64,000 bases of DNA from an uncultured delta proteobacterium (GCA_963737905.1 CAVTUQ010000043.1:1-64000); one strand, 5' to 3'. Positions 29,625 to 51,428 are shown, counted from the first letter of the stretch. A program made the numbers and translations. Notes: generated by a model from the letters alone, not told the origin.

Positions 29625-31737
29625 ATGTCTAATATCACAGCGCCGAATAAGTCAAGCCGGCAACGAGCTTTTGAACCCCGCGCTGGGTTTCTCCAATGGG
29701 GAATACCGATCATCATCGTTGCCCTGACGGCGGCCGCGTTTTATCCGGCGCTGCAAAACAGCTTTGTCAATTGGGACGACTACAAAAATATCGTAGAAAA
29801 CCCCCACTATCGCGGCCTCGGCTGGACGAATTTCCGCTGGATGTTTACGACTTTCCACATGGGCCATTATCAGCCATTGAGTTGGGTGACCTTGGGACTG
29901 GATTATGTTTTTTGGGGGATGAACCCTTTCGGATATCATTTAACCAACCTCATTCTCCACGGCGCCAACGCCCTCGTGTTCTATTATGTTTCCCTTCGAC
30001 TTTTGTCGTTACTCGATACCACGCCTTCGACCCATAAAACTCATGCGCTACCTATAGCAGCGGTTTTGGCTGCGCTGTTTTTTGCCATCCACCCTCTGCG
30101 AGTCGAATCCGTTGCCTGGGTTACCGAACGACGGGACGTCCTCTCCGGATTCTTCTTTCTTTTGACTATACTCTTCTACCTCAAAGCCGTCACTGTCGGA
30201 GAAGCCGAGTCGGGCCGTCGGCAATGGAGGGCCCTTTCCTTGATTTCCTATGGACTTTCATTGCTGTCTAAAGCCAGCGGAATCACGCTTCCGCTCGTGC
30301 TTGTGGTTCTTGACGTCTACCCTTTGCGGCGGCTGGGACAAGATCCGAAGCGATGGCTAGCTCTGGAATCGCGCAAGATTTGGCGAGAAAAAATAGCCTT
30401 TCTCGTGCTCGCCTTGGGGGCGGGAATCGTGGCTCTAATGGCCCAGCACCAAGCGAAAGCTATTCGACCCCTGGAGCAATACGATACCGCCTCCCGAATA
30501 ATGCAATCTCTTTACGGAGTGGGATTCTATTTACGGAAAACAGTCCTGCCCTTTAGCCTGTCCCCCCTTTACGAGGTTTCCCAAACTCCCGATCCCTGGC
30601 GATGGTCCTTCTTGCTCAGCGGGATTGTGGTTGTCGGAATCACGGTAGCCCTCTTTTTTCAAAGGCGGCGCTGGCCGGCCATTTTTGCGAGTTGGATGGT
30701 TTATGTAATTCTCTTGTTCCCGACATCGGGAATTGCTCAGAGCGGTCCCCAGCTCGTCGCCGATCGCTATAGCTATCTTTCCTGTATGGTCTGGGCGTTG
30801 GGCGGCAGCGGAGCGTTTTTTCGACTTTGGCAGCTCTCGTGGAATCGAGATGCTCCTCGGAAGGCTGTTTGGTTCGGTGGTGATTTTTATCGCGGTGGTT
30901 TTGATGGGCCTCGGGGTCCTGACCTGGAAGCAAACACAGGTTTGGCACGATTCGGAAGAATTGTGGCGCCATGCATTATCGATCGATCGAGAATCTTCTT
31001 TCGCCCACAATAATCTCGGTAATGCGCTTGCCGCTCAGGGACGATTTGAAGAAGCGATTGATCAATTTCAGAGGGCCCTAAGAATCGACTCTAACGACCC
31101 AGATGCGACTTATAATCTAGGCAATGCCTTGGCACAACAAGGCAACTTCGAAGCGGCGGGCAAACAACTGCAGCAGGCCCTGCAAATCAATCCCAACAAT
31201 GCCATGGCCGCCTACGACCTGGGCAACGTGCGCGCTAGACAGGGACGATTTGAAGAAGCGATTGATCAATTTCAGACGGCGTTAAAGATCGACCCCGGAC
31301 TGGCGCGGGCTCACTACAATGCGGGGAGTCTTTTGACCCAGCAGGGTAAGCTAGACGAGGCAATCGCTCACTTTCGCCAAGTCATGCTCCTTGCCCCCGA
31401 AGACGCGCGGCCTCCCTACCATCTAGGGCAAATATTTTCACGACAGGGAAGGCTTGACGAAGCGATTCGGAACTATCGTCTTGCCTTGCGCATCGACCCT
31501 TCCAATCTGAAGGCGCGTTATTACTTGGCAGTCGCCCTCACCGAACAAGGCGACTTCGATAGTGCAGGAAAAGAATTTGCGGAGACGCTTCGCCTTGACC
31601 CGAACCTCGGGGAAGCTCACGCCGGCCTGGCGCGCGCGCTGTCAGCACAGGGAAAGAAAAATGAAGCGGTGCAGCACTATCAGGAAGCTCTGCGACTTTT
31701 AAAATCAGAGAGTCAGATTGAAGGGTCAAAGAAGTGA
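29625..31737 (+). CDS. TMTC-like GT-C glycosyltransferase (putative protein O-mannosyltransferase) with C-terminal TPRs; frameshift near 30850-30880
   Basis: FVNWDD, YQPL, GYHLTNLILH, HPLRVESVAWVTERRDVL, LSKA, ADRYSY; ORF 30733-31737 supplies QTQVWHDSEELW and about six TPRs. Confidence 0.85.
31036..31276 (+). repeat. Exact 37-nt direct repeat 204 nt apart within the TPR region
   Basis: cagggacgatttgaagaagcgattgatcaatttcaga at 31036-31072 and 31240-31276. Confidence 0.85.
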
Positions 31738-31797
31738 CCTGGGATAACGAAGCGGCGGTGAGAGAGAGCCTCGGTTGACCCGGTCCATGGGTTGGGG

Positions 31798-33852
31798 ATG
31801 ACCAGGACCGACAAGCTAGTGTCCTATCTGCTTCCCAGTTCGGTTGCCCTCATGACCCTCATCGTTTTTTCACGGGCTTTACGGAACGGCTTCGTTAACT
31901 GGGACGATCTGGAGACTCTCGTTGAAAACCAAAACTTCAGAGGTTTTACCTGGTCCCATCTGCGCTGGATGTTTACGACCTTCCACCAAGGTCACTACCA
32001 ACCTCTCACCTGGCTTACGTTCAGCCTGGATTATCTGGTGTGGGGTATAGATCCTTTCGGTTATCACCTGACAAATATTCTCTTTCATTCGGCGAATGCG
32101 GTGCTCTTTTATTTCGTTACCCTGCGTCTGCTGGCGATCGCGTCACCGATTTCCAGCGCCCTTTTGCTAAAGCTGGCTGCGGGATTTTCCGCCCTTGTCT
32201 TCGCCCTTCATCCTCTGCGGGTTGAATCCGTTGCGTGGGCCACTGAACGCCGCGACGTTCTTTCAGGGTTTTTTCTTCTGCTGACGGTTCTTAGCTACCT
32301 GAAGGGCGTTGGTTACGAAACGAATGATAGGAGCGGGCGGCGCTGGATCGCCGTCTCGGCGCTGCTTTATGTGCTCTCGCTTCTATCGAAAGCGAGCGGC
32401 ATGACGCTTCCGCTGGTTCTGCTCGTCTTGGACGTCTACCCGCTCCGGCGGCTCGGAGGCGGCGTCGGTCAATGGTTCAGCGCGGGTTCCCGGCGTGTTT
32501 GGCTGGAAAAGCTGCCTTTCGTTGCGGCCGCCGTAGCCGCTGGGGCGGTCGCCTTAACGGCTCAACAAAAAGCGGGCGCTCTCGTGAGCACGGAAACCCA
32601 CGATCTGGCGGGAAGAATCGCTCAAGGATTGTACGGCGTAACCTTCTACATAGTGAAAACTTTGCAGCCTACCGATCTTGCTCCGCTTTACGAAATTCCT
32701 CCCGAGCTTCATCTTTTTCACTGGCGTATCATTTTTGCGGCGCTCGTTTTTCTCGTGTTGAGTCTTGGCTTTTTCGCGGCCAGGCATCGATGGCCCGCCG
32801 CCATGGCGGCTTGGATCGTGTATCTCCTGCTGTTGGCGCCGGTCTTGGGCGTCGCTCAAGCCGGCGTGCAGTTGGTGGCGGATCGCTACAGTTATCTATC
32901 ATGTATGGTTTGGGCGATACTTTTGGCAACCGTGCTTTCTCGTCTTTGGCGACCGATGACTCTGGGAGTCGCTCGCCCCATTCTTCTGACGGCGATTCCG
33001 CTGTTCGTTCTTTTCGGGTTGGCTCGTTTGACCTGGAGACAGACCGAGATTTGGCACGATTCGGAGAGACTCTGGAACCATGCGCTTGCCGTGAGCCCTT
33101 CGAGTATGGCCCATTTCCACGTCGGCAGGTTCTCGGCACAGCGTGGCGATTTGCCCGAGGCCGAGAAGCACCTGCGTCGCGCCGTCGAGATCAATCCGAC
33201 CAACGATGTGATGCAAAGCAATCTTGCTTTGGTTCTCGCAAGACAGGGAAATTTGGCGGAAGCAACGGCGCATTTTTATCGCGCCTTGGAAATCAATCCG
33301 GCCGATCCAGCCACCTTGAACAACATGGGCATCGCCCTTGCTCAACAAGGCAAGCTGGATGAAGCGATCGAGCACTTTCAGCGTTCTGTGGAGATTAAGC
33401 CCAACGACGCCTCAGGTCACTCGAACCTGGCAAATGTGCTGCTGAACCGAGGAGATCTGGACGGGGCCATGAAGCACCTGCGCCTCGCCATCGAGATTGA
33501 GCCGGGGGATGCCGATAACCAGAACAGTCTCGCCATTGTCTTGGCGAAGCGCGGAAATTTGGCGGATGCCACCGAGCACCTGCGCCGTGTCGTGGAACTC
33601 AAGCCCGGAGACGCTGCGGCCGTGAACAATTTGGCCATTACCCTCGCTCAACAAGGACAACTCGGGGAAGCGGCCCGACATTTCGAAGCAGCTCTCAGCA
33701 TCGATCCCAATATCGCCGAAGCTCATGCGGGGCTGGCGCGGGTGCTCGCCATGCAGAAGAAGCCGGAAGAGGCGACGCGCCATTATCAGGAGGCGCTCAG
33801 GATCCTCAAGGCGCAACAGAAGGCTGAAAGCTCCGGAGACAGCAAGCGATGA
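31798..33852 (+). CDS. TMTC-like GT-C glycosyltransferase with C-terminal TPRs (paralogue)
   Basis: FVNWDD, HPLRVESVAWATERRDVL, ADRYSY, WHDSERLW, about seven TPRs. Confidence 0.88.
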   Translation: MTRTDKLVSYLLPSSVALMTLIVFSRALRNGFVNWDDLETLVENQNFRGFTWSHLRWMFTTFHQGHYQPLTWLTFSLDYLVWGIDPFGYHLTNILFHSANAVLFYFVTLRLLAIASPISSALLLKLAAGFSALVFALHPLRVESVAWATERRDVLSGFFLLLTVLSYLKGVGYETNDRSGRRWIAVSALLYVLSLLSKASGMTLPLVLLVLDVYPLRRLGGGVGQWFSAGSRRVWLEKLPFVAAAVAAGAVALTAQQKAGALVSTETHDLAGRIAQGLYGVTFYIVKTLQPTDLAPLYEIPPELHLFHWRIIFAALVFLVLSLGFFAARHRWPAAMAAWIVYLLLLAPVLGVAQAGVQLVADRYSYLSCMVWAILLATVLSRLWRPMTLGVARPILLTAIPLFVLFGLARLTWRQTEIWHDSERLWNHALAVSPSSMAHFHVGRFSAQRGDLPEAEKHLRRAVEINPTNDVMQSNLALVLARQGNLAEATAHFYRALEINPADPATLNNMGIALAQQGKLDEAIEHFQRSVEIKPNDASGHSNLANVLLNRGDLDGAMKHLRLAIEIEPGDADNQNSLAIVLAKRGNLADATEHLRRVVELKPGDAAAVNNLAITLAQQGQLGEAARHFEAALSIDPNIAEAHAGLARVLAMQKKPEEATRHYQEALRILKAQQKAESSGDSKR

Positions 33853-35911
33853 ACCGGGCAGCGCCTAGAGCCGAAAGGCGACCGCGAGCTGAGAGGCGGC
33901 GCGCAGGAGTCGAGCCGAAGAATAGAAGCAGGCTGCCGACGGATACGGCGTGGTTTTGGATTATTTTCGGCTGCGCATTTCTCGTCCGTTTACTCTACCT
34001 TGTGGAAATTGATTCAATTCCCCTCTTTTATAATCTTGCCGGCGACGGCCGGACATACGACCAGTGGGGGCAGAGAATCGCTGCCGGGGATTGGTTAGGG
34101 GAGGGAGTTTTTTATCAGGCACCCCTTTATCCCTACTTCCTTGGATTTCTCCAGGTAATCCTCGGGCATAATCTTTGGCTTATCCGGCTCATGCAGATCG
34201 CGCTTGGAGCGACTTCCTGCGCTTTGATTTTCCAAGCAGGCCGCAATCTATTTTCGCGCCAAGCTGGAATTGCCGCCGGTCTGATTCTCGCCTGCTATGC
34301 CCCAGGGATTTTTTTTGACGGTCTCATCGAGAAGAGCATCCTCGATTTTTTTCTTCTCGCGCTGCTTTTGTGGCTGTTGAGTCAAGCGGAGAAAGGACGG
34401 CAATGGAAGCAGTGGCTGGCCATTGGCGCTGTGCTGGGTCTGTTCGGGCTTTCACGGGAGAATGCGCTTATTTTAGTTATGGTGGTGCCGGTTTGGATCG
34501 GACTCCATTTTTCTGATTCGCCCGTCTTGACTCGGTTGCAATGGGTGGGGATTTTCTTCGCCGGTCTGCTATTGGTGCTGGTTCCGGTGGGACTGAGAAA
34601 TTTGACGGTCGGCGGTGAGTTCAAACTGACGACTTCTCAGTTCGGTCCGAATTTCTTTATCGGCAACAATTCCGCGGCCGACGGAACCTATGTGTCCGTC
34701 CGAAACGTGATTGGCGAGCCACAGCTGGAAGGGAAAGACGCCCAGCGCCTGGCCGAAAAAGCCTTGAATCGAAGCCTGACTCCCGGAGAAGTGTCCGATT
34801 ATTGGCTGCAACAATCGTGGGACTATATTCGCTCCCAACCCGTCAGATGGATGGAGCTCCTCGGCAAGAAATGGTTGTTGGTCTGGAACGCCCATGAAAT
34901 TGAAGACTCGGATGATTTCTACATCTATCAGCAGTGGTCCTGGTTGCTCAGTTTTCTCGGAGCAATCAACCATTTCGGAATCCTGGCTCCCCTAGCAGCT
35001 CTCGGCTGGTGGTTGACCCGTCATCAGTGGCGGCGCTTGTGGCTGCTCTACGCCATGATATTCGCTCTCGCTTCGAGTGTCGCGATTTTTTACGTGTTCG
35101 GCCGCTATCGCTTTCCGCTCGTGCCATTGCTCGCGCTTTTTGCAGGCGCGGGGCTAGTGGGATCCGCGAGCCTGTACAAACAGCACGAATGGGGGTCTTT
35201 GCTGGCCGCGTTAAGCGTGTTGGTGTTTGTCGCCGTCGTCGCCAATTGGCCAATCTACGGAATTCGCGGTCCGAGCCCCGGCGGTTATAACAACCTATCC
35301 AATGCATACTACAAGGAGGGCAGAGTAGACGAAGCCATTAAAACCGCTCTCAAGGCGCTCGAATTACAGCCCGATTACGGAGTCGCGCGTTACAATCTCG
35401 GTAACCTCTACGCTGCTCAGAAAAGATTCGATCTGGCCCAGAATAATTTCCAGGAAGCGCTGCGGCTCTATCCGAATTACGCGGAAGCCTATAGCAATTT
35501 TGGGCAGTTGATTGCGGAAAGGGGCGATATTGAGACGGGCATCCGCTATTTTCGTAAAGCCATCGAGCTTAACCCGTCGATCAGCAGGGCGCACCTTAAC
35601 CTCGGCGTGGCGCTCGCCAAGCAGGGGCGAATCGAAGAGGCGGTCGCCCGCTTCAGGAAGCGGCGCGGTTGGCCCCGGAATCCGCCGAGGCCCGCAATTA
35701 CCTGGGGAGCCTATACGCCGCTCAAGGCCGATACGATGACGCGGCAGTATTCTTTCGAGACGCGCTCCGAATCCAGCCGGATTACGCCCAAGCGCATCAG
35801 AGTTTGGCTCAACTCCTATTGTTGCAAGGGAAGAAGGAAGAAGCACGGCGGCACTATGAAGAAGCACTGCGGCTCGGGAAACTCAGGGGAACCCCGTCAA
35901 ACGTTCGCTGA
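33849..35911 (+). CDS. GT-C (ArnT/PMT_2-like) glycosyltransferase with TPRs; frameshift near 35650
   Basis: DGRTYDQW, FYQAPLYPYFLG, LSREN, NFFIGNN, RYRFP, then TPRs continuing in ORF 35669-35911. Confidence 0.8.
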
Positions 35912-36006
35912 GCCATGGTCATAGATCTCTCTCGCATTTATCGGCGGTAATGCTAACGAGGGATAGGTAACCTGATACAAGGCTTTTATTATTATCATTT
36001 AAAAAA

Positions 36007-37920
36007 ATGGCCGGTCGTCTGAAAAGGCAAAAACTATCTGATCCCCGAAAATCCCAAATAGCACGTCGCAGCCGGAGCGACAACGGTATCGTGTCCGCGC
36101 CTGCTGAGGGAAGGTGGGAGTGGGCGGGTATCGTGTTCCTGGTGCTGGCGGTTGTCTGTGCGCTTGTTGTTTCCTGGCGCAAATGGCCAGACCCCTTGGT
36201 CGATTTTGGCCGAGAACTTTATCTCCCGTGGCGACTTAGCGAAGGGGACGTTCTCTATCGCGATATTGATCATCTCTATGGTCCGCTTTCCCACTATTTC
36301 AACGCATTGATCTTTCGCATCTTCGGCACAGGGATGATGAAAATCGTGGGGGTCAATCTGCTGATCTACTGCGCAAGCCTCGCTCTCATCTATTATGAGG
36401 TCCGCGTCGGATGGGGCCGGCTTGCCGCGTTCACCGGTTCTCTGCTGTTCATTTTGCTGTTCTCTTTTTCCCAGTTCGTACAAATCGGCAACTATAATTT
36501 TGCCACGCCCTATGCGCACGAGACAACGCACGGCTTTTTTCTCATCCTTGTGCTCATTCTCATCTGGGCGTCCTGGCTCCGCGAACCCCGCACATGGAAA
36601 ACACTGGCCGCAGGGATTTGCTGCGGCTTGAGCGTGCTGCTCAAACCGGAGATCCTTCTCGCCGCCGCAACTGTCACTCTCTGCGCCTTAATGCGCGCGG
36701 CGCTTTTGCGACCGGGGTTTCGTTCCCTGAAGACTGTTCTTCGAAGTGGATTGGTCTTTCTTGCAGGCGGGTTATTGCCCGTTCTGATTGCGACACTCGG
36801 CTTTTGGAGTGCCTCTTCCTTTGGCGCGGCGTTATCGTGGTCCAACAACGCGTGGCTCAACCTGTTCAACTTCGCCCATATTGCCGAGGAGCCTACCCAG
36901 CGGATGTTTCTGGGTACGGCTAAGGTTGGTGAAAATCTAAGAGGTATACTCTTGTTGGGGCCGCTTTCCGTTTTGGCGATTTTTGCGGTGGGCCTCCTTT
37001 GCAAACGAATTGATCGCGCCAAAGTCGCCATCGGCGTGAGTGGTGTACTCGTCTTCGCGGCGGCGCTCCTTTCACTTGTGCTGCCTTGGCTTGAGTTAGG
37101 TAAGATTTTCCCCGCGTGGCTTTGCTTCGCGGTTCTGGCAGAGTTTTGGTGGATGCCCCTGCTGGCTCCCCGGTCTCCTCTTGATATCACCTCTGCCGAC
37201 ATGCGATGGCTGCTTTTGATTGCGGCTGCGTCCTTTCTCACGCGAATGGCTCTGAATCCACGTTTTTTCCACTACGGCTACTATCAGGCCGCTCTTGCTG
37301 GAGCCGTTACCATGGCGGCCATCTTTCGCTCCATGCCGGATTTGCTGAAAATCCACGGAAGCGGCCGCGCGACTTACACAATCGTCGTTGCAATTTGTCT
37401 GGCATCCGGGATTTGGCAGCTCGAGGAAATCTCCCTCCTATATCTCAAGCTCAAAACAACCCCCATCGCCGAAGGCCCCGATCGGTTTTATGGTTTTGAG
37501 CCTCGGGTCGAACCAACAGCCAGCCTCGTGGAGGAGGCTCGTCAAACGCTCATCACCAGACCGAAGTGTAAAACTTTGGTCGCTCTGCCCGAAGGTGTGA
37601 TGCTCAACTATCTCTTGCGAAAGCCGAGCACGATTCCTCAATTTATGCTGCATCCCTGGCTCATTCAGGGCGCCATGGGAGCGCGCTTGCTGGAAGGTCT
37701 GAAAACCCGACCGCCGGACTGTGTGGTGCTTATCAGCCGAGACATGCAAGAATTCGGAGTCTACCGTTTCGGAGACACGCCCGAGCATGGAAGCGAGATC
37801 CTTTCCTGGCTGGAAGGAAATTACAAACCCTTCCGGCAAATCGGTGGCGACCCACTCGACGTCAACCAGCGAGGGGTGACTCTCTACGAGAGAAAGAAAC
37901 CATCCGGCGATGCTCCTTGA
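36007..37920 (+). CDS. Polytopic membrane protein, probable GT-C glycosyltransferase
   Basis: WPDPLVDFGRELYLPWRL..GDVLYRD..YGPL, LLKPE, many TM segments, periplasmic C-terminal domain. Confidence 0.72.
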   Translation: MAGRLKRQKLSDPRKSQIARRSRSDNGIVSAPAEGRWEWAGIVFLVLAVVCALVVSWRKWPDPLVDFGRELYLPWRLSEGDVLYRDIDHLYGPLSHYFNALIFRIFGTGMMKIVGVNLLIYCASLALIYYEVRVGWGRLAAFTGSLLFILLFSFSQFVQIGNYNFATPYAHETTHGFFLILVLILIWASWLREPRTWKTLAAGICCGLSVLLKPEILLAAATVTLCALMRAALLRPGFRSLKTVLRSGLVFLAGGLLPVLIATLGFWSASSFGAALSWSNNAWLNLFNFAHIAEEPTQRMFLGTAKVGENLRGILLLGPLSVLAIFAVGLLCKRIDRAKVAIGVSGVLVFAAALLSLVLPWLELGKIFPAWLCFAVLAEFWWMPLLAPRSPLDITSADMRWLLLIAAASFLTRMALNPRFFHYGYYQAALAGAVTMAAIFRSMPDLLKIHGSGRATYTIVVAICLASGIWQLEEISLLYLKLKTTPIAEGPDRFYGFEPRVEPTASLVEEARQTLITRPKCKTLVALPEGVMLNYLLRKPSTIPQFMLHPWLIQGAMGARLLEGLKTRPPDCVVLISRDMQEFGVYRFGDTPEHGSEILSWLEGNYKPFRQIGGDPLDVNQRGVTLYERKKPSGDAP

Positions 37921-37979
37921 AATTTCACGTTTTTCTTTGACGGACGCGATTATCAGCTGTGCTCTAAAGCTGCGAGCAG

Positions 37980-40858: not shown

Positions 40859-40872
40859 GAGCGTTACGACTC

Positions 40873-41757: not shown

Positions 41758-41768
41758 GACAATGACAC

Positions 41769-41915
41769 GGCCATTGGACTCAATCCATCCTTGAGTGGAA
41801 CGTATTTGAATTTGGGAGTCGCGCTGGCGCGGCAAGCTCGGATCGAGAGGCTGTTGATCTGCAGAGTCTCGCCCAGTTGCTGTCTTTGCAAGGCAAAAAA
41901 AAGGAGGCGATGCAG
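41769..41915 (+). pseudogene. Degenerate remnant of the TPR C-terminus of gene 33849-35911
   Basis: AIGLNPSLSGTYLNLGVALARQARIE versus AIELNPSISRAHLNLGVALAKQGRIE; QSLAQLLSLQGKKKEA versus QSLAQLLLLQGKKEEA. Confidence 0.7.
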
Positions 41916-41989
41916 AGGCCCTTAGGTTCACGAGAAACGGGGCGCCGCGATAAGTCCTCCGTGAGCATGGCCGGGTCGCAGGAACTCGA

Positions 41990-43982
41990 TCACTGGCTGA
42001 TGTGCAGGGTCAATGCGGCGGGCGGATCGATAATCTTGATGAAAGGAATGGGGTCATCATAGATCTTGACTGGGACGATTCTCGCCGGCGGGCTGGCTAC
42101 GAGGCCTTCGGTCCAATGATACTTTAGGACAATCTCTTTCCCCTTTATCTCGGACAGGTCAAGACGGTTGAGGCTCGCCTTGACCCTGCCTTCCCCTTGG
42201 AGAAACCAAGTCAATGGCTGATTCACTTTCATGAGGTGAGCCGGGCCCGCGCGTCGGTCGGAAGTGACCAATCCGGGCACGGACTGGATGCGCTGAACGG
42301 AGGCTGGATAAAAGGCCACCACAGCGCCGATGTTGTAAAGACGAAAGTAATTTCTGATTGCATCGTCGGTGAGGTTCCGGATGTCTTTCTTAAGAAATTT
42401 TCCCGAGTGAAACTCGGCGAAGTGGTGGCGGTCATTGTAAAGATTGATCGGCCCGCCGATCAGCTCGCGACCGGTCCAATGCGGGATAAACGAGGACAGA
42501 TACATTCCGTCATAAGCAAAGCCGGTTTCATCCCCCGACTCTTCGAACAGCACTCGGCCATCGGCAGGTGTGTCCTGCTTGATCCATTCCACGATGGCAT
42601 GCAGTTCCGGGCGAAGCTCAGTGCGAAGCAACATTTTCGCGCGCGTTTCGGTCTCGATAAGATTGAACAGAAAGGCCAAGAGGCCGCAGGCGGCGACCGC
42701 CGGCAGGACGTAAGACCGGGAGGATAGAGATCGCCGGGCTAATCCATGGACTATCGATGTAAGAAGCCGCCAAGGTTAAGAAGAGATCAAGGGGAACCTT
42801 GAAGCGAAGGGGTTGCCAGCTTTTCACGAAAGGCATTAGAGAACCAAAGTAGGCAAGGAAGAAGAGAACAAGAGAGGCGCTGGCGAGCATGACGCCGGCA
42901 GCCCGGTTTTCATCCCGCAGAAGTCTCCACATCCCCCAGGAGCCGAGGAAAAGTAACATCAAGCGGAAACCTTTTTCCAAAAAGGACGGGCGAAAGCTCC
43001 AGTAACCGCTTGGCCCGAGGTAGTCTTTGATAAAGGTAAACGGATCGATACTAGTGAATAGCGGCAATTGATCGACGATCGCCGAGGCAACGTCGTCGCT
43101 GCGATGATGAAATGCGGGAACCAGCCACGGCAGGTTTACGAGAATCGAAAGAGCGGCGCCCACAACGGTCCAAATCAATAGATTACGCCGGAAGACATCG
43201 CGTTGGACGACGAGGAGAGCAATCATCGGCGGCAGAAATATCACAATGGATTGAACGTGAAGGGGTAGAATAACCAGTGCGAGCACAAGCCAGCCAAGAT
43301 GAGCGGGACTCCACAAAGCGGGCGTTTTGGCGATTCGATACAAAAGGGTAACTCCCAAGACGCTGGCATAAGAAGCAGGCGCATAACCCACCATGCCGTA
43401 GAAAAACATTTCTCTCGGTAAAGAGTTCCACCAGTAGGCCGTTCCCAACAGTGCCGCCACCAGTGCCGCGCTGTTTTTGATGTCATCTCGATCAAAAAAA
43501 AGATTGCGCGCGGCAAAATACATGAGCCAAGGAATGCACGCCATCGAGAGAAACGCCAGAATCTTGAACCACTGGATCGGAGCCAGTCCAAGGGTTGAGA
43601 GAGCGAGGGCCGCGAATTCGAAAAATTTGATGCTTAAATCCTGAATCGTATTCGACGGGTAGCCGGCCATAAAAAGGGGGTTGTAGCCCCAGAAAGCCTG
43701 ATCCTGGTGCCAAAACGCCTCCATAGACTTGAGATGATGAAAATGAAGGCCCCAGTCCTGCTCAATAATGGGTTGATTGTTAAAGAGGCCGGACAAGGGA
43801 ACAAACAGAGAAGCCAAACCCAAACTGTGAAGTAAGAACAAGATTCCGGTCCACGTCAAGGAAACTCGCGCGTTGGGCCAGACTGACGGGGTTTTCTGCA
43901 GCGATCGAGCTTCCGAGGTGCGTCGCGTCTTGTTCTTCTTACCGGCCTTTTTAGCTGTCATTTGTCGCTGATTGACCGACAT
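41990..43982 (-). CDS. Polytopic membrane protein, probable GT-C/YfhO-like; frameshifted near 42680-42750
   Basis: QDWGLHF, WGYNPLFMAGYP, LPWLVP, QPLRF, then a soluble domain (GRVLFEESG, VLKYHWTEG) in ORF 41990-42679. Confidence 0.65.
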
Positions 43983-44026
43983 TCAATGAGACATCGGCTG
44001 TCCTGCAGAGCTGAGCCGCGTCCATG

Positions 44027-46546
44027 CTACCGGTTTCTTATCGAGCCTGCTTTCTTGGAAGATTTAATTGGTTTGGGCTGGACCAGACTTTTGGGTTGGA
44101 CCAGACTCTTGGATTGGACCAAAGCTAAGGAGATAGGAATGAGCAGGAAATAGCATAGTGCTCCGATAATCAGAGTCGCCGTAATTCCCAGCGCGAGGCT
44201 AATTGCAATGGCACTGATGGAGGCGAGCACGCCCGCTGCGCCGTTGATCCCCCAGAACCAAGGCGTGGGTCTGGAATCGATCGAGGCGATGAGCCGCATG
44301 CCTGTAGGGAAACCAAACCCAAGTAAAAGCCCGGCCGGCGTGATGGACAACACGCATATCACAATCCGGACGGGTAGCGTGGCGTCATTGAAAGCTGCAA
44401 ATAGGTTACCCAAGGCAAACGGCAAGATCATCAAGTAGCCGCCTGTTAAGATGGCCCAAGTTGTAATCTTAACCCGGTTATCAAGTGTCAAATTTTCTGA
44501 GAGGAAACTGCCCATACCTGTTGTTAGTATTAGGCTGAAGAGAAGAACGGCCAGGGAATAGATGGGATGGCCAAGGAATACGGTCATGCGTTGGAGTAAC
44601 CCGATTTCGACCATCATAAAACCGATACCGATCAACGCAAAGTACAGTGTCCCCCGAGTCGCTACCGCACGGCCAACGTCTTTAAGCGCCGGACGCAGCG
44701 GTACAATGATTGCTGCCATGACGAATATCAACGAGATAAAAAACAAAACAAGCAATGTGATCGTGGCCACCAAATTTCCTTGCCTTACGCCGCCCCCCTG
44801 GGGGCCCCTTGCGAGCATAGTTTTCGCGTGAGCGAGCGCCTGGAACGGGCGGGAAAGAGGCAATTGATTGAAAAAAAACGGCCGGTCATCTGTGGGGGGC
44901 GTCAGGTCAAACTCAAGGCTTGATGTATAACTGTCGAGTGATTTTCGATCAACGGCGGTTATTATCCGGAGACAACGTGTCGGAACCAGGCACACGGCGA
45001 GGACTCAGCAATACGCTATGCTGATATTCCGCCGCTGCTGTCTCCAGGTTTTCGACGTCGCTCGCGGAGAAAGGCGATTTAGACAAGACCAGAGTAGCGA
45101 CCGTACCCTGCGAAGCGAGAAACACATGGCGGCTGGGATCGGCGATCCCCATCTCCATTAGCGTTGCCACAGCTAAACTGATCAGTCTTCCGGTTTCATC
45201 GGGAACTGAAGGGTCGTACCACCGGCTGACGGTCAAAACACCTCTCGGCGTCAATCGATTGAGAAAAATCTTCCAGGCTTCGACCGTATAGAGGCCGTTT
45301 TCGCTCAGGGTAAAAGCCCCAGCCCCCGTTGCAGCCCAGGTGTCAACCAAGCTCATCTGGATGAGGTCGAAAGACTCCTGGCTTCGGGCGAGCCAGCTTC
45401 TTCCCTCATCCAGTACAAAGTTAACTCCCGGCAACGCGGCCACGTTGTTGAAATCGAGAAAGTCGGGCTCTCGAGTCAAGAGCTGAACGAAAATAGGATT
45501 GATCTCCACGCCGGTAATTTTCTTCCGGCCGAAAAGAGCCGCGGATAAAATGTCTCGCCCGGCACCGACGCCAATCACAAGGACCCGCTCGCGATCGGGG
45601 AGAAAATAGGCAAGATTCGTGACGTCATATCTGTAGAAACGCTACCTCATCCAAATTGCCGGTAAAGCGATAGGCATAGGTGGCTGCGTCGCCGTCGATG
45701 TTTAAGATCGTTTGATAAACAGACCATTTATTGTCAAACATCTTAGGCGATGGACCCCACATTTCCGGTATGCCTCGTTTCACCTGCTCCACAACGACCC
45801 GCGAGAAGGAGTTCCATTGCTTGAATAGATGCGATCCCGGAAATTCGAATTTACCCTTTACGGCTATAGGCTGGAGACCATGGTCTGTGTGGGGATTAAT
45901 CAGAGCGCATAGGACGAGGACGGAAAGAATCCAGTAATGATGCTGCAGGCACGAATGCAGCGGTGGCTTTTGATCCGGTGCTTTACCAATGCCGGAACCA
46001 GAAAAAGCCAGCGCCGCTGCCGCCATCAAAGGCTGCGACCCACAAAACGGCCGAGGGACCATCGGTGAAATTTAGAAGCAATAGCGCCCCTAGGCAACCG
46101 ATGGCCGCACCTAATAAATCGACTCCGTAAACCCGTGGCCAACCGGAAAAGGACTGCGGGTTAGCGCGAGACTCACCACCACGCCGGAGAAGAAAAATGG
46201 GATGGACAAACAGATGGCAAGCTCAGTCCATATCCAGAGTGTCGTCATTGCCCCGCTAATGACGGGCGCTAGTGTCATTTGCACGGCTAGACAAATCGCA
46301 GCGGCGAAGGCAAATAGCCCGCTAAAATAGGACAGGTCATAGGATAAAGTCTTTTCCGTGAATCGGTCACGGCGCAAGTAAACCCAAACGGCCCCGACCG
46401 TCAAGCCAAACATAGCTAGGCTAATCACGAAAAATGCCAAGTGATACCAGACCACGACGGAAAGAATACGTGTCTGGATGATCTCCAGCATTAAGGTGGA
46501 AGAGCTAATAAGGAACACACCGAGATAGAAAAAAAGTGGTCGTCAT
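44027..46546 (-). CDS. Membrane-bound SAM-dependent transferase (spermidine synthase-like domain flanked by TM domains), several frameshifts
   Basis: Colinear ORFs: LEIIQTRILSVVVWYHLAFFVIS; WNSFSRV, IDGDAAT; VIGVGAGRD, GVEINP, DEGRS, DLIQMSLVDTWAA; PTDDRPFFF, LGHPIYSL, WFWGINGAAGV. Confidence 0.75.
44071..44124 (-). repeat. 18-bp tandem repeat x3 encoding LVQSKS-LVQPKS-LVQPKP
   Basis: ggtttgggctggaccaga cttttgggttggaccaga ctcttggattggaccaaa. Confidence 0.8.
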
Positions 46547-46681
46547 TACGGTTTCTGGGCTAAACCCGTTGGTGGTTTACCATTGAGGGATACACCCAAA
46601 CAAACCGATATCAAGATTGCATTTGTTTGGGAAGCAGGATATCGATGAAGCGAAGACGGAGGAATTCCCGTTAGAGCAAAA

Positions 46682-48397
46682 ATGACCAATCGAGCGACGG
46701 TGAGGCGCCGCCAGCGCAAAAGGCAAAACTCTGTAAGAGCAGCCGATGCAGGGCGAACCGTCATGGGACGCCCTATCGTGCTTATAGTCCTTGGCGGCCT
46801 ACTGGTGGCGGGGGTCATTACCCGTATCCATTTACTCGATAGAAGCTTGTGGCTGGACGAAGCCTGGGTGGCCAACTCGATCCGCGCTCCAACCCTACAC
46901 CAAGCGCTCTATTACGATGATTGGTTGCAGACGACCCCACCACTTTTTATCGCACTCAGCCGCCTCATCACGGTTCTTATTGGGACGTCGAATGTCGCTT
47001 TTCGAGCGCTCCCCGCGCTGTCCGGAATCGTCTCCGTGCTTGTTTTTTCCTTTATTGCTTTAAGACTCTTAAAACCCAGTTTCGCGATGATCGCGATCTT
47101 GTTGTTTGTTTTTAGCCCGCGAGTGATCCTCTATAGCCAGTCAGTCAAGCAATACAGTACGGATGTGCTTTCCACGACCAGCCTGCTGGTGCTCGGATAC
47201 CTTTATATCGAGAAGCGCGACGATCGCTCGTTCTACTTGTTATTGGCAACTTTTGCTGTGCTTAGCTTTCTTTCCTATCCTGCGATGCTGTTTTTACCCT
47301 TTCTCCTTTACGCCGCTACGACCGGAGTTGATTTGCAGTCGAGACCTAAGGACACCCAAGCGGCAATTCGTCCGAAGTGGCTCCGGGTTTTCGTGGTGGT
47401 CGCGCTCGCAGTTCTTGTACCCGTGACCAACTACTTATTTTTTATTGCACCGAATAAGACTTCGGCGCTGACTGAGTTTTTTCCGGAGGGTTTTTATCAG
47501 GGGCACACTCTAGCTGAGTTTTTGGAGTTCTATGGGACCCGGCTTCTGACCCTGACGGGGATGTTTTTCTTCGGGGGTCCGGGCGTTTTACGCTTTGTTA
47601 CGGTATGCATCACAGTTATCGGGTTCATTCATTTGTGGGTGTCTCAAACAAAGTGGCCGCACCCCGAAACCTTCCAGACGGCTGTTCTGTTGACGGCGCC
47701 GATTGCGGGGGTCGTCGGTCTGAATATGCTCGGATTTTTTCCCTTGCCGGGTTTCCACCACCGGCTCTTGCTCTTTGTATTTCCGATTACCACCTTGGCG
47801 TCTTGCCTCGGATTGCAGTTTCTTGCAAATCTGACTTCGGGCTTCCTAACGTCTCGATTGGCAAACGTTAAAGCGACATCGGTGGAAAACGTCCTTGGAT
47901 CTGTTCTCTTTGTCGGGCTGCTTGGTTTAGTATTGCTGTTCTTTAGTACCTTCGGTATGAAGCCCTTTTTTGCGGAAGAATACGAAGACAGTGAGGAAGC
48001 TATTGCTTATCTTGCGCAACGGGTTCAGGCGAACGACGTCCTCTATATTTATGCGGCTATGCGAGAACAATTCAAGCTATACGGTAGAACACTGCCACCC
48101 GCGACAAACATTTTTTATGGAAAGATTGGTACGCCCTGTTGTCCCCGAAAGAATTATCGCAGTCCCAAGCAAGAATCCGCAGGCGATGTTATCCGCGAGG
48201 TCTCGGCGTTAAGTGACGCGGCAGCGGGGCGATCCCTATGGCTTTTAGTTACAGATCGTCCTCTTCACTGGCTTTATCTACAGCGTAACGATATTGAAAT
48301 ACTTGACCGCGGTCTCGCAAATAAAGGTTGCGAAAAGACCGAAGAAGCAAAATTCGCGGGGGTTTACATCGGTCACTTCAGATGCAAGCCGAAATAG
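46682..48397 (+). CDS. GT-C (GT39/PMT_2-like) glycosyltransferase
   Basis: RSLWLDEAW acidic motif, TPPLF, AFRALP, YSQSVKQYS, many TM segments. Confidence 0.82.
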   Translation: MTNRATVRRRQRKRQNSVRAADAGRTVMGRPIVLIVLGGLLVAGVITRIHLLDRSLWLDEAWVANSIRAPTLHQALYYDDWLQTTPPLFIALSRLITVLIGTSNVAFRALPALSGIVSVLVFSFIALRLLKPSFAMIAILLFVFSPRVILYSQSVKQYSTDVLSTTSLLVLGYLYIEKRDDRSFYLLLATFAVLSFLSYPAMLFLPFLLYAATTGVDLQSRPKDTQAAIRPKWLRVFVVVALAVLVPVTNYLFFIAPNKTSALTEFFPEGFYQGHTLAEFLEFYGTRLLTLTGMFFFGGPGVLRFVTVCITVIGFIHLWVSQTKWPHPETFQTAVLLTAPIAGVVGLNMLGFFPLPGFHHRLLLFVFPITTLASCLGLQFLANLTSGFLTSRLANVKATSVENVLGSVLFVGLLGLVLLFFSTFGMKPFFAEEYEDSEEAIAYLAQRVQANDVLYIYAAMREQFKLYGRTLPPATNIFYGKIGTPCCPRKNYRSPKQESAGDVIREVSALSDAAAGRSLWLLVTDRPLHWLYLQRNDIEILDRGLANKGCEKTEEAKFAGVYIGHFRCKPK

Positions 48398-48453
48398 AGA
48401 AGCCCGCGTCACGATGAAGGGCGATCGCTGTTGTTGCTGAAGTTGGCTGGTGG

Positions 48454-49197
48454 GTGCCACAGGTGGATCTTGACCTCTCTGTTATAATCCCGGCGTATAA
48501 CGAGGCTGAAAGGATTATTCCGACGCTGCAGCGAATCAACGATTATCTCAGGGGTAGCTCTTTCAGCTCCGAAATACTGGTTGTTCTGGACGGACCAACG
48601 GATAACACGCTTGGCGTATTGCGGGAAGTCTCGGAAAAAGTTCCAAATCTGAGGATCTTGGAGCGACATCGAAATCGTGGCAAAGGCTACACGGTTAGAG
48701 AAGGGATGTTGAAGGCCTCTGGGCGATTGCGGCTTTTTTGCGATGCGGACAATTCCACGGATATCGCCCATTTCGACAACATGATACCGCTTTTCGAAGA
48801 AGGCTATGAGATCGTCATTGCGTCGCGCCATTCCAAAGACGCTGCCGGAGCACAACAGACCATTTCGCAACCGAGATACAAGCGGATCATCGGACAATTG
48901 GGCAATATCGTTGTCCAGTCCGTTGCCGTACGTGGAATTTGGGATACACAGTGCGGCTTTAAAGCTTTTCGCGCGGAAGCGGCGAAGCGGATATTCTCTC
49001 AAACTGTGATTGATGGGTGGGGCTTCGATATCGAGGTCTTCGCGCTGGCGCGCGTCTTAAATTACAAGATTGGTATTATTCCCGCCCATTGGGTAAACGA
49101 TCCAAGAAGTCATGTTCGATCCATCGACTATTTACGAGTTTTCGGTGATACGCTTCGCGTGCGGATCCGGCTAATGGCCCGCAAATACAATGTCTAA
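48454..49197 (+). CDS. GT2 dolichyl-phosphate beta-glucosyltransferase-like (ALG5-like) polyprenyl-P-sugar synthase
   Basis: LSVIIPAYNEAERI, NRGKGYTVREGM, FCDADNST, IWDTQCGFKAF, GWGFDIE. Confidence 0.88.
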   Translation: MPQVDLDLSVIIPAYNEAERIIPTLQRINDYLRGSSFSSEILVVLDGPTDNTLGVLREVSEKVPNLRILERHRNRGKGYTVREGMLKASGRLRLFCDADNSTDIAHFDNMIPLFEEGYEIVIASRHSKDAAGAQQTISQPRYKRIIGQLGNIVVQSVAVRGIWDTQCGFKAFRAEAAKRIFSQTVIDGWGFDIEVFALARVLNYKIGIIPAHWVNDPRSHVRSIDYLRVFGDTLRVRIRLMARKYNV

Positions 49198-49343
49198 GGA
49201 AATCTAAAGGGTCAAGAGTTCAGGCTTTTACATTATGGTTTCAAATGCGCTATGTTCCGGACTGATCTTTTTCTTTTTGCTGCTTTGTTTTTAAACAATC
49301 GGCAGAACTGTGACTTCCACTCATAAGCTTTTTCACTCCTGCA

Positions 49344-51428
49344 ATGGTAAGTAGGGCCAGGCCGATAAGATTAGTGACAAAGGCCAGGAAAAGCTCGGCG
49401 GCAGCGGAGGTGCGAAAACTAGCGGCTCAAAAGTCGCCAAGCAACACAACTATATCCCTTCGAGTTCTGGTATCGATTGCACTGGGAATTGGCCTGACTT
49501 TTATAGTGGTCGTTCTCGGCACGATTAGGGAGCTGTCGCCCACCTTCGACGAGCCGGTTCATGTCCTCGCGGGTTACTCCTATCTCAAGTGGAAAGATTA
49601 CAGGGTTAATCCGGAGCATCCGCCATTGGCAAAGGCTCTGGCGGCGCTACCGTTGCTTGCCTTGGATATTAAGGACCCGCGCCCCGGGAACTCAGACTGG
49701 GACCGCATTCCGAAGCAGCAACCTGGAATTCCAACGGTTAAATTCGCGCGCGAACTGCTGTTTGTTCACAACGATGGCGCAAAGCTTTTCCAGTACGCGA
49801 AGCTGCCCTTTGTGATTCTTACCGTAGTTCTTGGACTGTTTGTTTTTCTCTGGAGCTTACAATGGTTTGGCCCAGTCGCAGCGGTCGCCTCCCTCATGCT
49901 TTTCGCCACCGATCCCAATATCATCGCTCACAGCACGCTCGTTCACACCGACATGCCTTTCACCGCGTTCTTTTTCATCGGCACCTATTTTTTTCAACGC
50001 GCGCTTTCTAGGCGGCGTTGGCCGGACGGGCTACTGACGTGTGTTCTTTTTTCCTTGGCAGCGATCACAAAATTTTCTTCCGCTGGGATTATGGCGAGCT
50101 GGAGCCTTGCGGGTTTAGTTTGGCTCCTTCAGCCTGCTTCATCGCACGATTCTCAGTCAGGCAATGCCGCTACTCGAAGTCGCAAGCTGCTCGTGGTTTC
50201 GGGAATACTACTCGGAAGTCTGCTCGGTGCGTATTTATTCACCTGGGCGGCCTACGGTTTTCGATTTGCGGCGATACCCGGAACTGAAGCGTCATTTTCC
50301 ATGGCGCCGGTTATGCCGGAAACCACGCCTTTGCTTGTGCAGAAAGCGGTCTCTTTTTTAACTCGGTTTCATCTACTGCCCGAGGCGTGGATCTATGGCG
50401 AGCTTCATACTCTCACGTTTCTTAGACGCACAGCCTTTCTGTTAGGCGAGTTCTCCGAAGAAGGTTTTTGGCTTTACTTTCCGGTTGCTTTCCTGGCAAA
50501 GACACCGCTTCCTACTCTTATATTGGTCCTTCTCTCTATCGCCGGCTTGCTGACTCGCCGGTACGACCACGAGAGACCGATCTTTACTCTTTGGGCTCCG
50601 GTGTTGGTTTATTTTTCCATCGCGGTTTGGGCCCGAATGAATATCGGCATACGTCACATCCTTCCCGTCTATCCGTTCCTATTCGTGTTGGCTGGTGGGA
50701 GCGCCGCCGCGCTTTGGAACAGCCGCATCGCATGGAAGCGAGGTTGTCTTGCATTAATCGGCGGGTGGGCTCTTTGGGGCTCCCTCGCCACCTATCCCAA
50801 TTATATCGAGTATTTCAACGAGGCTGCCGGCGGTCCGAAGAACGGCCACAATATTTTGTTGGACTCCAACTTGGATTGGGGGCAAAACTTAAAGAGTTTG
50901 AAGTCCTGGATGGACGAACACGGCGTGAAGAGTATCTTGCTTCTTTATTTCGGCCAGGCCGAGCCGGCCTCCTATGGGATCGACGCGATTCACATTCCGG
51001 GAAGTCTCGTTCGGCCGAGGACGTCAAAGCGCTCAGATTCGAGCATTCCGTACGTTCTCGCCGTTAGCGCAAATCACTTCTATGCAGGCCAAGTTTACTC
51101 CACGACAGCGGAAGCCGACTTTATCCGATCATTTCGGCTGAAAGAACCGGTGGCAACCATCGGCCATTCGATCCTGGTCTTCAAGCTCGACCCGTCCGAT
51201 CCCCAGACTAACTATACACTCGGAACCATTATGGCACTGCGTGGTGAAGTTTCCCTAGCCGAGGAACTGTTTCGTAAAGTCCTGGTGGTGCTCCCTTCGT
51301 CTGCAAGGGTTCACGAAGCGTTGGCCCAGGTCCTTGCCTTGCAGGAAAAACTCACCGAAGCCGAGTATCACTACAAGCAGGCAATAGCGATCTATCGTTC
51401 CCGGCCCACCCATCCGGATTCACGATAG
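49344..51428 (+). CDS. GT-C (GT39/ArnT-like) glycosyltransferase with C-terminal TPRs
   Basis: PTFDEPVH, NPEHPPLAK, PNIIAHS, KTP, NIGIRHILP, YFNEAAGG, DSNLDWGQ, two TPR-like repeats. Confidence 0.85.
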   Translation: MVSRARPIRLVTKARKSSAAAEVRKLAAQKSPSNTTISLRVLVSIALGIGLTFIVVVLGTIRELSPTFDEPVHVLAGYSYLKWKDYRVNPEHPPLAKALAALPLLALDIKDPRPGNSDWDRIPKQQPGIPTVKFARELLFVHNDGAKLFQYAKLPFVILTVVLGLFVFLWSLQWFGPVAAVASLMLFATDPNIIAHSTLVHTDMPFTAFFFIGTYFFQRALSRRRWPDGLLTCVLFSLAAITKFSSAGIMASWSLAGLVWLLQPASSHDSQSGNAATRSRKLLVVSGILLGSLLGAYLFTWAAYGFRFAAIPGTEASFSMAPVMPETTPLLVQKAVSFLTRFHLLPEAWIYGELHTLTFLRRTAFLLGEFSEEGFWLYFPVAFLAKTPLPTLILVLLSIAGLLTRRYDHERPIFTLWAPVLVYFSIAVWARMNIGIRHILPVYPFLFVLAGGSAAALWNSRIAWKRGCLALIGGWALWGSLATYPNYIEYFNEAAGGPKNGHNILLDSNLDWGQNLKSLKSWMDEHGVKSILLLYFGQAEPASYGIDAIHIPGSLVRPRTSKRSDSSIPYVLAVSANHFYAGQVYSTTAEADFIRSFRLKEPVATIGHSILVFKLDPSDPQTNYTLGTIMALRGEVSLAEELFRKVLVVLPSSARVHEALAQVLALQEKLTEAEYHYKQAIAIYRSRPTHPDSR

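Follow-up and report, generated by a model that had tools for sequence, protein, structure and literature searches.

The sequence studied comes from an uncultured soil bacterium, recorded as a delta proteobacterium, and covers the opening 64 kb of a contig of 76.6 kb (GCA_963737905.1 CAVTUQ010000043.1:1-64000; this whole stretch of 64,000 nucleotides is the window), taken from an assembly of 6.7 Mb in 46 contigs with a completeness of 87% and a contamination of 6.7%. The closest named relatives of the encoded proteins are metagenome-assembled genomes (MAGs) labelled Candidatus Binatia. Positions 29625-51428 hold 13 genes, densely packed with gaps of less than 150 bp by coordinates, and this locus is made up of three tightly packed transcription units: g1-g2-g3-g4 on the plus strand, g11-14, g9/10, g8, g7, g6 and g5 on the minus strand, and g15-g16-g17 on the plus strand. 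It combines candidate glycosyltransferases of the polytopic GT-C type, some of them ending in tetratricopeptide repeats (TPR) and two of these resembling the animal TMTC enzymes, with two family 2 glycosyltransferases (GT2), and it very probably works by a donor logic in which a GT2 synthase loads a sugar onto a lipid phosphate for use by a GT-C transferase. The 13 genes are as follows.

g1, 29625-31737, plus strand: TMTC-like GT-C N-terminal domain and C-terminal TPR tail; frame broken in the assembly
g2, 31792-33852, plus strand: 686 residues (aa), intact; TMTC-like GT-C domain at residues 1-430, TPR at about 437-680
g3, 33849-35911, plus strand: PMT_2-type GT-C with TPR tail; frame broken in the assembly
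g4, 36007-37920, plus strand: 637 aa, polytopic, weakly PMT_2-like, without TPR
g5, 37980-38843, minus strand: 287 aa, similar to short-chain dehydrogenases/reductases (SDR) and NAD-epimerases; last gene of a g7-g6-g5 cassette
g6, 38840-40442, minus strand: GMC-type FAD oxidoreductase, 533 aa; frame broken in the assembly
g7, 40418-40858, minus strand: soluble protein of 146 aa, without family match
g8, 40873-41931, minus strand: GT2, similar to polyprenyl-phosphate-hexose synthases
g9/10, 41990-43982, minus strand: polytopic, 657-663 aa, of a family without Pfam entry; frame broken in the assembly
g11-14, 44027-46542, minus strand: membrane protein of about 840 aa with a spermidine-synthase-like domain; frame broken in the assembly
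g15, 46682-48397, plus strand: 571 aa, PMT_2-type GT-C without TPR
g16, 48454-49197, plus strand: GT2 of 247 aa, without transmembrane (TM) segment, DPMS/GtrB/ArnC-like
g17, 49344-51428, plus strand: 694 aa, PMT/PMT_2-type GT-C with a short, weak C-terminal TPR

Pfam and NCBIfam scans covered the open reading frames (ORFs) of at least 120 aa inside the locus and of at least 90 aa in its flanks, and the cut-off for PMT_2 was 26.1 bits. A first-pass annotation of the window had described about seven polytopic GT-C-like genes, four of them with C-terminal TPRs. We count seven candidates (g1, g2, g3, g4, g9/10, g15 and g17), of which g4 lies below the cut-off and g9/10 is recognized through its relatives only; the TPR tails are strong in g1, g2 and g3, and the fourth, in g17, is weak and below cut-off. 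The reported absence of wzx, wzy, wzm, GT4 and initiating phosphoglycosyltransferase genes agrees with our scans, in which no ORF of at least 120 aa in 29625-51428 matched any of these families. Two GT2 genes, g8 and g16, are likewise present as described, but their best matches do not separate a DPM1-like from an ALG5-like enzyme. The scans gave nothing for the membrane domains of g1 and g2, for g7, for g9/10 or for g11-14. A promoter and terminator scan was uninformative (8 promoter-like sites vs 10.5 expected), and a search of genome contigs for related loci found distant relatives only, with identities of at most 42%.

The membrane domains of g1 and g2 are 53% identical to each other, and a third g2 paralogue, on contig C19, is 49% identical. 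The TPR tails match TPR_1 with E-values of 2e-56 (g1) and 8e-49 (g2), and g1 reaches 24.4 bits with PMT_2, below the cut-off. PDB sequence searches with the g2 N-terminal domain and with its family profile gave no real match. The AF2 model of g2 residues 1-430 (pLDDT 91.5, pTM 0.92) was more informative in that the significant Foldseek matches to it are all GT-C enzymes. In VIA-align the model superposes on yeast STT3 with Z 22.1 (332 residues, 4.2 Å), on Pmt1-Pmt2 with Z 20.3 (354 residues) and on ArnT with Z 17.5, PMT and ArnT being among the proteins that had been suggested for comparison; for STT3, AglB and PMT as a group, Z lies at 20-22 over 320-354 residues. A Foldseek-independent search of 48,161 chains placed only GT-C enzymes or PIG-U in the top 20 (Z 20.7 to 10.4), the next chain, an unrelated one, having Z 7.7, and no TMTC structure is among the fold-search matches. 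On the predicted structure, the g2 N-terminal domain is clearly of the GT-C fold.

The family to which this domain belongs is large: at least 7300 proteins, among 8000 scored, match g2 residues 1-430 at E<=1e-5, and many of these relatives are named "protein O-mannosyl-transferase" in IMG and "tetratricopeptide repeat protein" in NCBI. The g2-family profile finds 1-8 copies in each of 18 of 31 related genomes, a tally that includes the unpublished genome G006. In an alignment of 40 N-terminal domains from six phyla, D38, D39, P71, H92, H140, P141, E145, W149, K200 and Y368 vary little or not at all; at least 90% of the 40 keep D38 and D39, which are invariant in a nine-sequence alignment that includes DUF1736 proteins, R365 is also conserved in the family, and R365 and Y368 of the DRYSY motif are invariant. 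The first-loop DD and the HP..VESVAW..R motif, which had been noticed earlier in two TPR-tailed genes, are indeed present in g1 and g2 and extend to the family. The conserved acidic first loop of GT-C-fold transferases should face the periplasm. Clustered copies were also seen far from this lineage, as the Verrucomicrobiota MAG loci L008, L001 and L002 hold 4-8 tandem g2-like TPR GT-C paralogues within about 20 kb.

TMTC1-4 are O-mannosyltransferases of cadherins in the animal endoplasmic reticulum (ER), classed as CAZy GT105. In the paper that describes them (PMC7801869), the motifs defined include M1 (DD), M2 (SHKSYRP-like), M4 (KE(T/Q)xxT) and M7 (ERxxY); the Lys of the KE motif is assigned to phosphate and its Glu to metal, the DUF1736 model corresponds to the TM7-TM8 loop and is called critical for catalysis, and essentially full-length TMTC homologues are already reported in many poorly characterized prokaryotes. 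We compared g1 and g2 with the animal enzymes through these published motifs and through bacterial DUF1736 proteins. None of the 40 family N-terminal domains matches TMTC_DUF1736 at E<=1, and the whole genome has no match at that threshold. In a genome of the same family (G016), five DUF1736 matches above cut-off all fall within genes hit by the g2-family profile, which aligns with them over its full length (E 1.7e-37 to 4.2e-66). The protein of locus L180, which scores 29 bits with TMTC_DUF1736 in one scan and 24.4, below cut-off, in another, is 28% identical to g2 from end to end (E 1e-54). Paired segments of g2 and L180 are FVNWDD and FVS-DD, GHYQPL and GSYRPL, HPLRVESVAW..ERRD and HPIHTEAVAW..GRAE, SKASGMT and SKEHTLM, and DRYSY and ERVLY. 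The M7-like DRYSY of g1 and g2 aligns with ER(V/L)(L/F)Y in L180 and L181, and the M2-like (Q/M)GHYQPL, with its invariant P71, aligns with KGSYRPL in L180, where L181 reads GDLYRPF. The C19 paralogue has the Glu of the KE motif, as have L012, L018, L180 and L181.

Compared with TMTC1-4, g1 and g2 share the arrangement in which a multi-span N-terminal GT-C domain precedes a non-cytoplasmic TPR tail, and they share the first-loop DD, H/K-x-Y-x-P-L, HP..TE.VA..GR, the third-loop Lys and (D/E)RxxY. They differ in having neither DUF1736 nor the 10-residue insert that ends in DNPL, the D(H/Y)SY motif or the KE Glu, in their bacterial periplasmic setting, and in a carrier that would be polyprenyl rather than dolichyl; no cadherin domain was found in the genome. 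g1 and g2 thus form a sister subfamily of the bacterial TMTC_DUF1736 proteins with a remodelled fourth loop, and are not DUF1736 members themselves.

Among the other polytopic proteins, g3 has the strongest PMT_2 score in the locus (E 2e-16, 61-66 bits) and a strong TPR tail; the beginning of the gene and the g2 stop share a 4-base overlap, and orthologues are found in genomes G002, G004, G016 and G011. The TPR-less g15 also matches PMT_2 (E 1.1e-7, 33-37 bits) and has an acidic first loop, WLDEAW (DE). The corresponding loop of g17 reads FDEPVH (DE); this protein scores 43-47 bits with PMT_2 (E 7.5e-11), 21.6-22.5 bits with PMT against a cut-off of 22.7 and 27.3 bits with TPR_12 against 30.1, and its orthologue in G001, 43% identical, lies directly after g16. 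The fourth, g4, has about 10 hydrophobic segments and a PMT_2 match below the cut-off (E 4e-4, 21.1-23.8 bits).

The protein g9/10 has a basic N-terminus, a first TM segment at 39-57 and no fewer than 8 hydrophobic segments, its C-terminal 220 residues are soluble, and its first loop carries the invariant QDWGLHFHH...WGYNP.F.AGYP. One search put the family at 457 proteins; another, at E<=1e-3, yielded 1488 clusters. g9/10 itself has no match in Pfam, NCBIfam or PDB, including a family-profile search of PDB, and Pfam on 27 close relatives gave noise only; PF10131 (PTPS_related), which PMC7801869 lists in the GT-C clan CL0111, matches 8 of 75 divergent relatives (best E 1.4e-12). A direct comparison of g9/10 with the g2 family by hhalign gave 22% probability with D70 paired with the DD motif, and 1% with a shallower alignment. 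We regard g9/10 as a probable GT-C relative. It occurs in 6 of the 31 related genomes beside g3/g2-like genes or g16, except on the short contig C789 of G004, which holds g9/10 and g11-14 only. The product of g11-14 consists of 7 TM segments, a spermidine-synthase-like Rossmann domain and a further 6-7 TM segments (about 14 in all); it matches PRK03612 at E 0.003, Spermine_synth is present in 11-46% of the proteins of its ESM Atlas clusters, and its relatives in IMG are called "membrane-bound spermidine synthase".

On the donor side, g16 is a clear member of Glycos_transf_2 (E 3.6e-23), with PDB matches to archaeal DPMS (5mlz, 3.8e-14), GtrB (5ekp, 5.9e-12) and ArnC (2.6e-9), and its best NCBIfam match is PgfS (E 2e-15), far below cut-off. 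Its orthologues adjoin g9/10 in G001, G004 and G011, and in G002 g11-14 lies in between. For g8 the corresponding values are E 8e-23 with Glycos_transf_2, 1.2e-40 with TIGR04182 (AglJ, below cut-off), 1.2e-9 with DPMS 5mlz and 7e-5 with ArnC. The NCBIfam scores of both proteins all lie below equivalog cut-offs, so that they are assigned at the family level only. The true start of g8 is probably the ATG at 41757, which gives 294 aa; contigs of X5 and X9, two public metagenome runs described below, skip 41770-41987, upstream of this codon. Of 17 distant loci, 3 have a DPMS-like GT2 next to their g2-like genes; such a GT2 was noted in L001, L002 and L014.

Downstream of g8 lies the g7-g6-g5 cassette, in which g5 matches Pfam Epimerase (E 1.3e-12) and the intact homologue of g6 in locus L101 has as its best PDB match the alpha subunit of an FAD glucose dehydrogenase (6a2u_B, E 8e-5). 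Among 79 metagenome loci with a g6 homologue, an SDR gene is next to it in 68, a small g7-like protein is upstream in 33, a g8-like GT2 lies upstream of the cassette in 13 and a GT-C gene is nearby in 3. The three-gene cassette, with its 533-aa GMC flavoprotein, turns up widely in metagenomes from soil and peat (L101-L179, identities down to about 40%), usually without a GT-C gene in view.

Two further arrangements were noticed elsewhere in the genome. GtrA_DPMS_TM has three matches, none on this contig; one of them, at G000:C2:549011-550012, shares a 709-aa open frame with the best PMT_2 match of the genome (154.7 bits) and resembles a fusion of a flippase with a GT-C enzyme. The C19 paralogue of g2 (L100 3619-9270; C19:146618-152269), frame-broken into 547 and 178 aa, is divergent from the gene of a 496-aa UbiA-family protein (PRK08238, 583 bits; DPPR-synthase-like, 1.7e-43), and an SDR epimerase adjoins it; pentofuranose three-component systems and the donor pathway of TfpW are laid out in this way.

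The distribution of the genes shows that the locus is a mosaic. A core of g1/g2, g3, g9/10, g16 and, in some, g11-14 recurs in G001, G002, G004, G011 and G016, which represent four genera including that of the window. A DNA search matched 18 of the 31 relatives (a tally that includes the unpublished G006 and G012), and g4 was found in 2 of the 31; G002 has the core without g4-g8, g15 and g17. In the metagenome runs X1 and X3, contigs join 35844 to 42009, skipping the 6164 bases of g4-g8, and join 46541 to 48464 with 112 other letters in between, skipping the 1922 bases of g15. Because these contigs join across both stretches, g4-g8 (6.2 kb) and g15 (1.9 kb) are presence/absence polymorphisms among close strains. 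The single 22-kb island that had been proposed for this interval therefore gives way to a conserved core with two strain-variable insertions. Acquisition of the whole as one horizontally transferred island was also considered and discarded, as only 38-42 kb stands out in GC content (0.585-0.60 vs 0.50-0.575 elsewhere) and the blocks vary independently.

Put together, the genes suggest glycosylation at the outer face of the inner membrane with lipid-phosphate-linked monosaccharides as donors. In a first step, the cytoplasmic GT2 enzymes g16 (core) and g8 (accessory) would, judging by their family, transfer a hexose from a nucleotide sugar to polyprenyl phosphate. The g7-g6-g5 cassette might then oxidize and re-reduce the lipid-linked sugar made by g8, a net epimerization that we propose weakly and by analogy with DprE1/DprE2 or ORF13, precedents for such remodelling in PMC11127046. 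The lipid-linked sugars would next be flipped, a task for which the only local candidates are the polytopic 657-aa g9/10 and about 840-aa g11-14 proteins. Finally, the GT-C proteins g1, g2, g3, g15, g17, g4 and probably g9/10 would pass the sugar to periplasmic acceptors; in the reading that we favour, the TPR-tailed g1, g2, g3 and perhaps g17 would O-glycosylate envelope proteins as TfpW and TMTC do, and the TPR-less enzymes would serve the same or other acceptors.

The donor logic has several precedents. TfpW (bioRxiv 10.1101/2020.04.19.049825) is the D-arabinofuranosyl transferase of Pseudomonas aeruginosa pilin, which uses a polyprenyl-phosphate-monosaccharide donor and a protein acceptor; it resembles g1 and g2, by description only, in being a GT-C enzyme of a diderm with 11 predicted TM helices, DDx in a periplasmic loop and a C-terminal TPR domain that is likewise periplasmic, and the C19 paralogue of g2 lies beside genes of the type of the TfpW donor pathway (UbiA/DPPR-synthase-like and SDR). 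It differs in that tfpW lies directly downstream of its substrate gene pilA, whereas no pilin match was found in the locus and flank ORFs scanned, and in that the donor enzymes of the window are GT2 and not UbiA-type. The three-component systems GtrA/GtrB/Gtr*, ArnC/ArnE-F/ArnT, CsbB/GtcA/YfhO and Citrobacter youngae ORF15/14/12, as presented in PMC11127046, likewise pair a GT2 (or UbiA) lipid-phosphate-sugar synthase with a GT-C transferase, g16 matching the GtrB and ArnC structures, and auxiliary epimerases diversify the lipid-linked sugar in them, as may happen here. Unlike these systems, the locus has no GtrA, SMR or MATE flippase match, it has seven GT-C candidates for two synthases, and four of the candidates are TPR-tailed (one weakly); the known acceptors of the systems are O-antigen, lipid A and teichoic acids.

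PMC12041528 describes streptococcal GtrB/PgtC2 and Pgf (PgfS, PgfE, PgfM1 and PgfM2), which O-glycosylate Ser/Thr-rich extracytoplasmic regions of proteins. Here too the genes of a GT2 synthase and of GT-C transferases are clustered, joined in Pgf by that of an epimerase; the GT-C enzymes, by contrast, are of the YfhO family without TPR, the hosts are monoderm, and the S. mutans cluster encodes its substrate adhesins, of which the locus has none. Actinobacterial Ppm1/Pmt (GT39) pairs a lipid-phosphate-mannose synthase with a PMT-type GT-C acting on exported proteins, and g17 comes near it with 22.5 bits to PMT; no MIR-like or WW-like domain was seen in the locus, however, g17 remains below the PMT cut-off, and the host lineage is another. 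In the literature covered, which did not extend to subscription journals and supplements, we found no test of a bacterial TMTC-like protein besides the architecturally similar TfpW. With the donor logic already known from these precedents, the locus is a further example of a widespread bacterial system rather than a new principle. The "ER-like logic" in a diderm bacterium that had been read from the sequence is thus upheld as regards the donors and is not new, being established in three-component systems, TfpW, GtrB/PgtC2 and Pgf.

That proteins are the acceptors of the locus enzymes is plausible, with a probability that we would place just short of even. The following results weigh against the pathway outlined above. 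TMTC_DUF1736 does not match g1 or g2 even at E<=10, and their EL4/DUF1736 segment aligns poorly with DUF1736 proteins; K200 is kept, but g1 and g2 read SKASG(M/I)T, and the Glu of the KE motif is absent. The missing Glu and the poorly aligned EL4 imply that donor or chemistry may differ from TMTC. No family match to a flippase (GtrA, SMR or MATE) was found among the ORFs of 29.6-51.4 kb. Only its relatives tie g9/10 to the GT-C clan, direct profile comparisons being negative or weak, and hhalign finds no link between the g2 family and g3. Since the accessory blocks are present in some strains and absent from others, the 13 genes need not all act jointly. The earlier suggestion to search the genome for cadherin proteins yielded 0 matches to PF00028; TIGR02595 (PEP-CTERM) gave none either, a result that carries no weight as its control was also silent. 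No Ser/Thr-rich, pilin-like or adhesin gene lies in or flanking the locus. The proposal that two lipid-linked donors feed GT-C transferases acting on proteins is accordingly supported in its first half, GT2 synthase-like enzymes being paired with GT-C transferases, and not in its second, with no candidate substrate gene beside the locus. The further division of labour, in which TPR-bearing members would select proteins and the others extend the glycan, is pure conjecture. Nor does the fold point to protein acceptors, since it is shared with ArnT, Emb/Aft and ALG enzymes (Z 15-19); the fold search ranks protein-modifying enzymes first, with ArnT, Aft and ALG enzymes close behind.

TPR tails are also found on glycan-handling enzymes and scaffolds. 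The same donor logic may therefore serve other acceptors, such as lipid A or the core of lipopolysaccharide (LPS), O-antigen-like chains, exopolysaccharide or periplasmic glycans, and the TPR tails may then hold glycan chains or attach the enzymes to machinery for export or assembly; we take this alternative seriously, although we think it rather less than evenly probable. The g2 model fits ArnT (Z 17.5), AftB/AftA (15-16) and ALG12 (19.3) almost as well as it fits protein-modifying enzymes, no substrate protein gene is linked to the locus, and a MurU/AmgK-like cell-wall sugar salvage pair is kept as a neighbour in several genera. The classical three-component systems and ArnC/ArnT, moreover, all act on glycolipids or polysaccharides (PMC11127046). 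Such acceptors sit less well with the lack of matches, within the locus and next to it, to Wzx, Wzy, Wzm, GT4, PGT or LPS core genes, and with the observation that both characterized enzymes combining GT-C and TPR, TfpW and TMTC, modify proteins. The occurrence of up to 8 tandem TPR-GT-C paralogues per locus would also fit many protein clients better, although this is a weak argument.

Under protein O-glycosylation by the TPR-tailed enzymes, a more specific proposal is that the core is a dedicated diderm pathway made up of two TMTC-sister TPR GT-C enzymes, a PMT_2-TPR enzyme, g9/10, the SpeE-like protein g11-14 and the DPMS-like GT2; this we consider unlikely as it stands. In it, the TPR tails would pick folded envelope proteins, the two polytopic proteins would act as flippase or as anchor for the soluble synthase, and the remodelled EL4 of g1 and g2 would mark a donor other than mannose; taken as a whole, the proposal has perhaps one chance in a few of being right. 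If true, it would describe the bacterial equivalent of the animal TMTC pathway and perhaps its forerunner.

TMTCs were once proposed to be scaffolds or chaperones, and g1 and g2 might in a similar way no longer be glycosyltransferases, catalysis being left to the PMT_2-type members. In favour of this are the absence from g1 and g2 of the KE-motif Glu, the proposed metal ligand in TMTC models, and of the DUF1736 signature that the authors of PMC7801869 call critical for catalysis. Members with and without the KE Glu, however, occur side by side, and the first-loop DD, the HP..E..VAW loop, K200 and DRYSY are invariant or nearly so in 40 family members, which argues for selection on an active site. 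We therefore consider a loss of catalysis in g1 and g2 very improbable.

Five of the 13 genes (g1, g3, g6, g9/10 and g11-14) are frame-broken in the assembly, with 7 breaks at 8 indel places. The break sites were compared with contigs of X1, X3, X5 and X9, public metagenome runs on soil and freshwater that belong to four studies. These contigs are 90-99% like the window, and at every site public contigs of 2-4 of the four runs carry an indel relative to it. In g1, which passes from frame 0 to frame 1 between 30833 and 30898, contigs of three runs have one base fewer at 30863. In g3, a T is added after 35647 in contigs of all four runs, and the TPR tail runs on in frame 2, with its stop codon at 35911. 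X1 and X3 have one base fewer at 40031 in g6, where fragments of GMC_oxred_C and of the DAO N-terminus lie on two ORFs and the L101 homologue is a single 533-aa frame, and one base fewer at 42754 in g9/10. In g11-14, X1, X3 and X9 have one base fewer at 44970/44972, at 45633 and at 46028, the last together with two bases fewer at 46137. Applied by script, these indels give open frames that end in a stop codon, of 703 (g1), 687 (g3), 533 (g6), 663 (g9/10) and 836 aa (g11-14). A genome of the same genus, G002, has intact orthologues of 671 (g1), 704 (g2), 685 (g3), 657 (g9/10) and 843 aa (g11-14). Because the public-contig indels at every break reopen all five frames, we read the breaks as assembly errors, and the genes are most likely intact in nature. 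That the locus is instead a decaying relic with five true pseudogenes, as the interruption of 5 of 13 genes in the given assembly might suggest, is the least probable of the alternatives and deserves hardly any credence, since contigs from 2-4 of four independent runs reopen all five genes, the breaks also strike the unrelated RND permease and AmgK-like kinase nearby, and the assembly of 46 contigs is only 87% complete. The permease gene (15092-17879, plus strand) is MdtB/C-like and divided between two or more ORFs (positions 139-478 and 482-1008 of the profile), the first 138 or so residues lying elsewhere, which is another sign of indel errors in the assembly.

TMTC-like TPR-tailed GT-C proteins are, by the number of matches to the g2 membrane domain (at least 7300), a very large bacterial family. 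To this family the locus adds a sister subfamily without the DUF1736 signature, two conserved partner proteins, one of them from a family of about 1500 sequence clusters without Pfam entry, and the small-protein/GMC/SDR cassette, which is widespread and may act in remodelling lipid-linked sugars. Since the host is not tractable and no candidate substrate has emerged, the value of the locus is comparative rather than decisive.

Just beyond the locus, g18 (51454-52200) encodes a MurU-like nucleotidyltransferase (192.6 bits vs a cut-off of 250), which adjoins the AmgK-like kinase gene (52200-53556, frame-broken near 52700), both on the minus strand (51454-53556). A MurU-like gene is usually near the core in the five genomes that carry it and stays so in G002, G004, G011 and G016. 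This could be plain synteny or a salvage route feeding a GT2, possibly g16; g18 was rejected as an established sugar-nucleotide supplier of the locus, its best match being to MurU, below cut-off, and its partner an AmgK-like kinase.

Elsewhere in the window, tandem, near-identical lipoprotein-like paralogues of about 200 aa without family match, sharing a LAGC lipobox context, lie at 24821-25483 and 25582-26691 on the minus strand, and 22213-23739 (plus strand) encodes a secreted 508-aa protein with a signal peptide and a C-terminal ...NFRYQF typical of outer-membrane beta-barrels, also without family match. Three UbiD-family decarboxylases are encoded at 3384-4817, 6068-7414 and 28136-29578; the one that abuts g1 is an SCO4490-type menaquinone enzyme (643 bits) and stands beside an MqnP/UbiA-like prenyltransferase gene (27100-28023).

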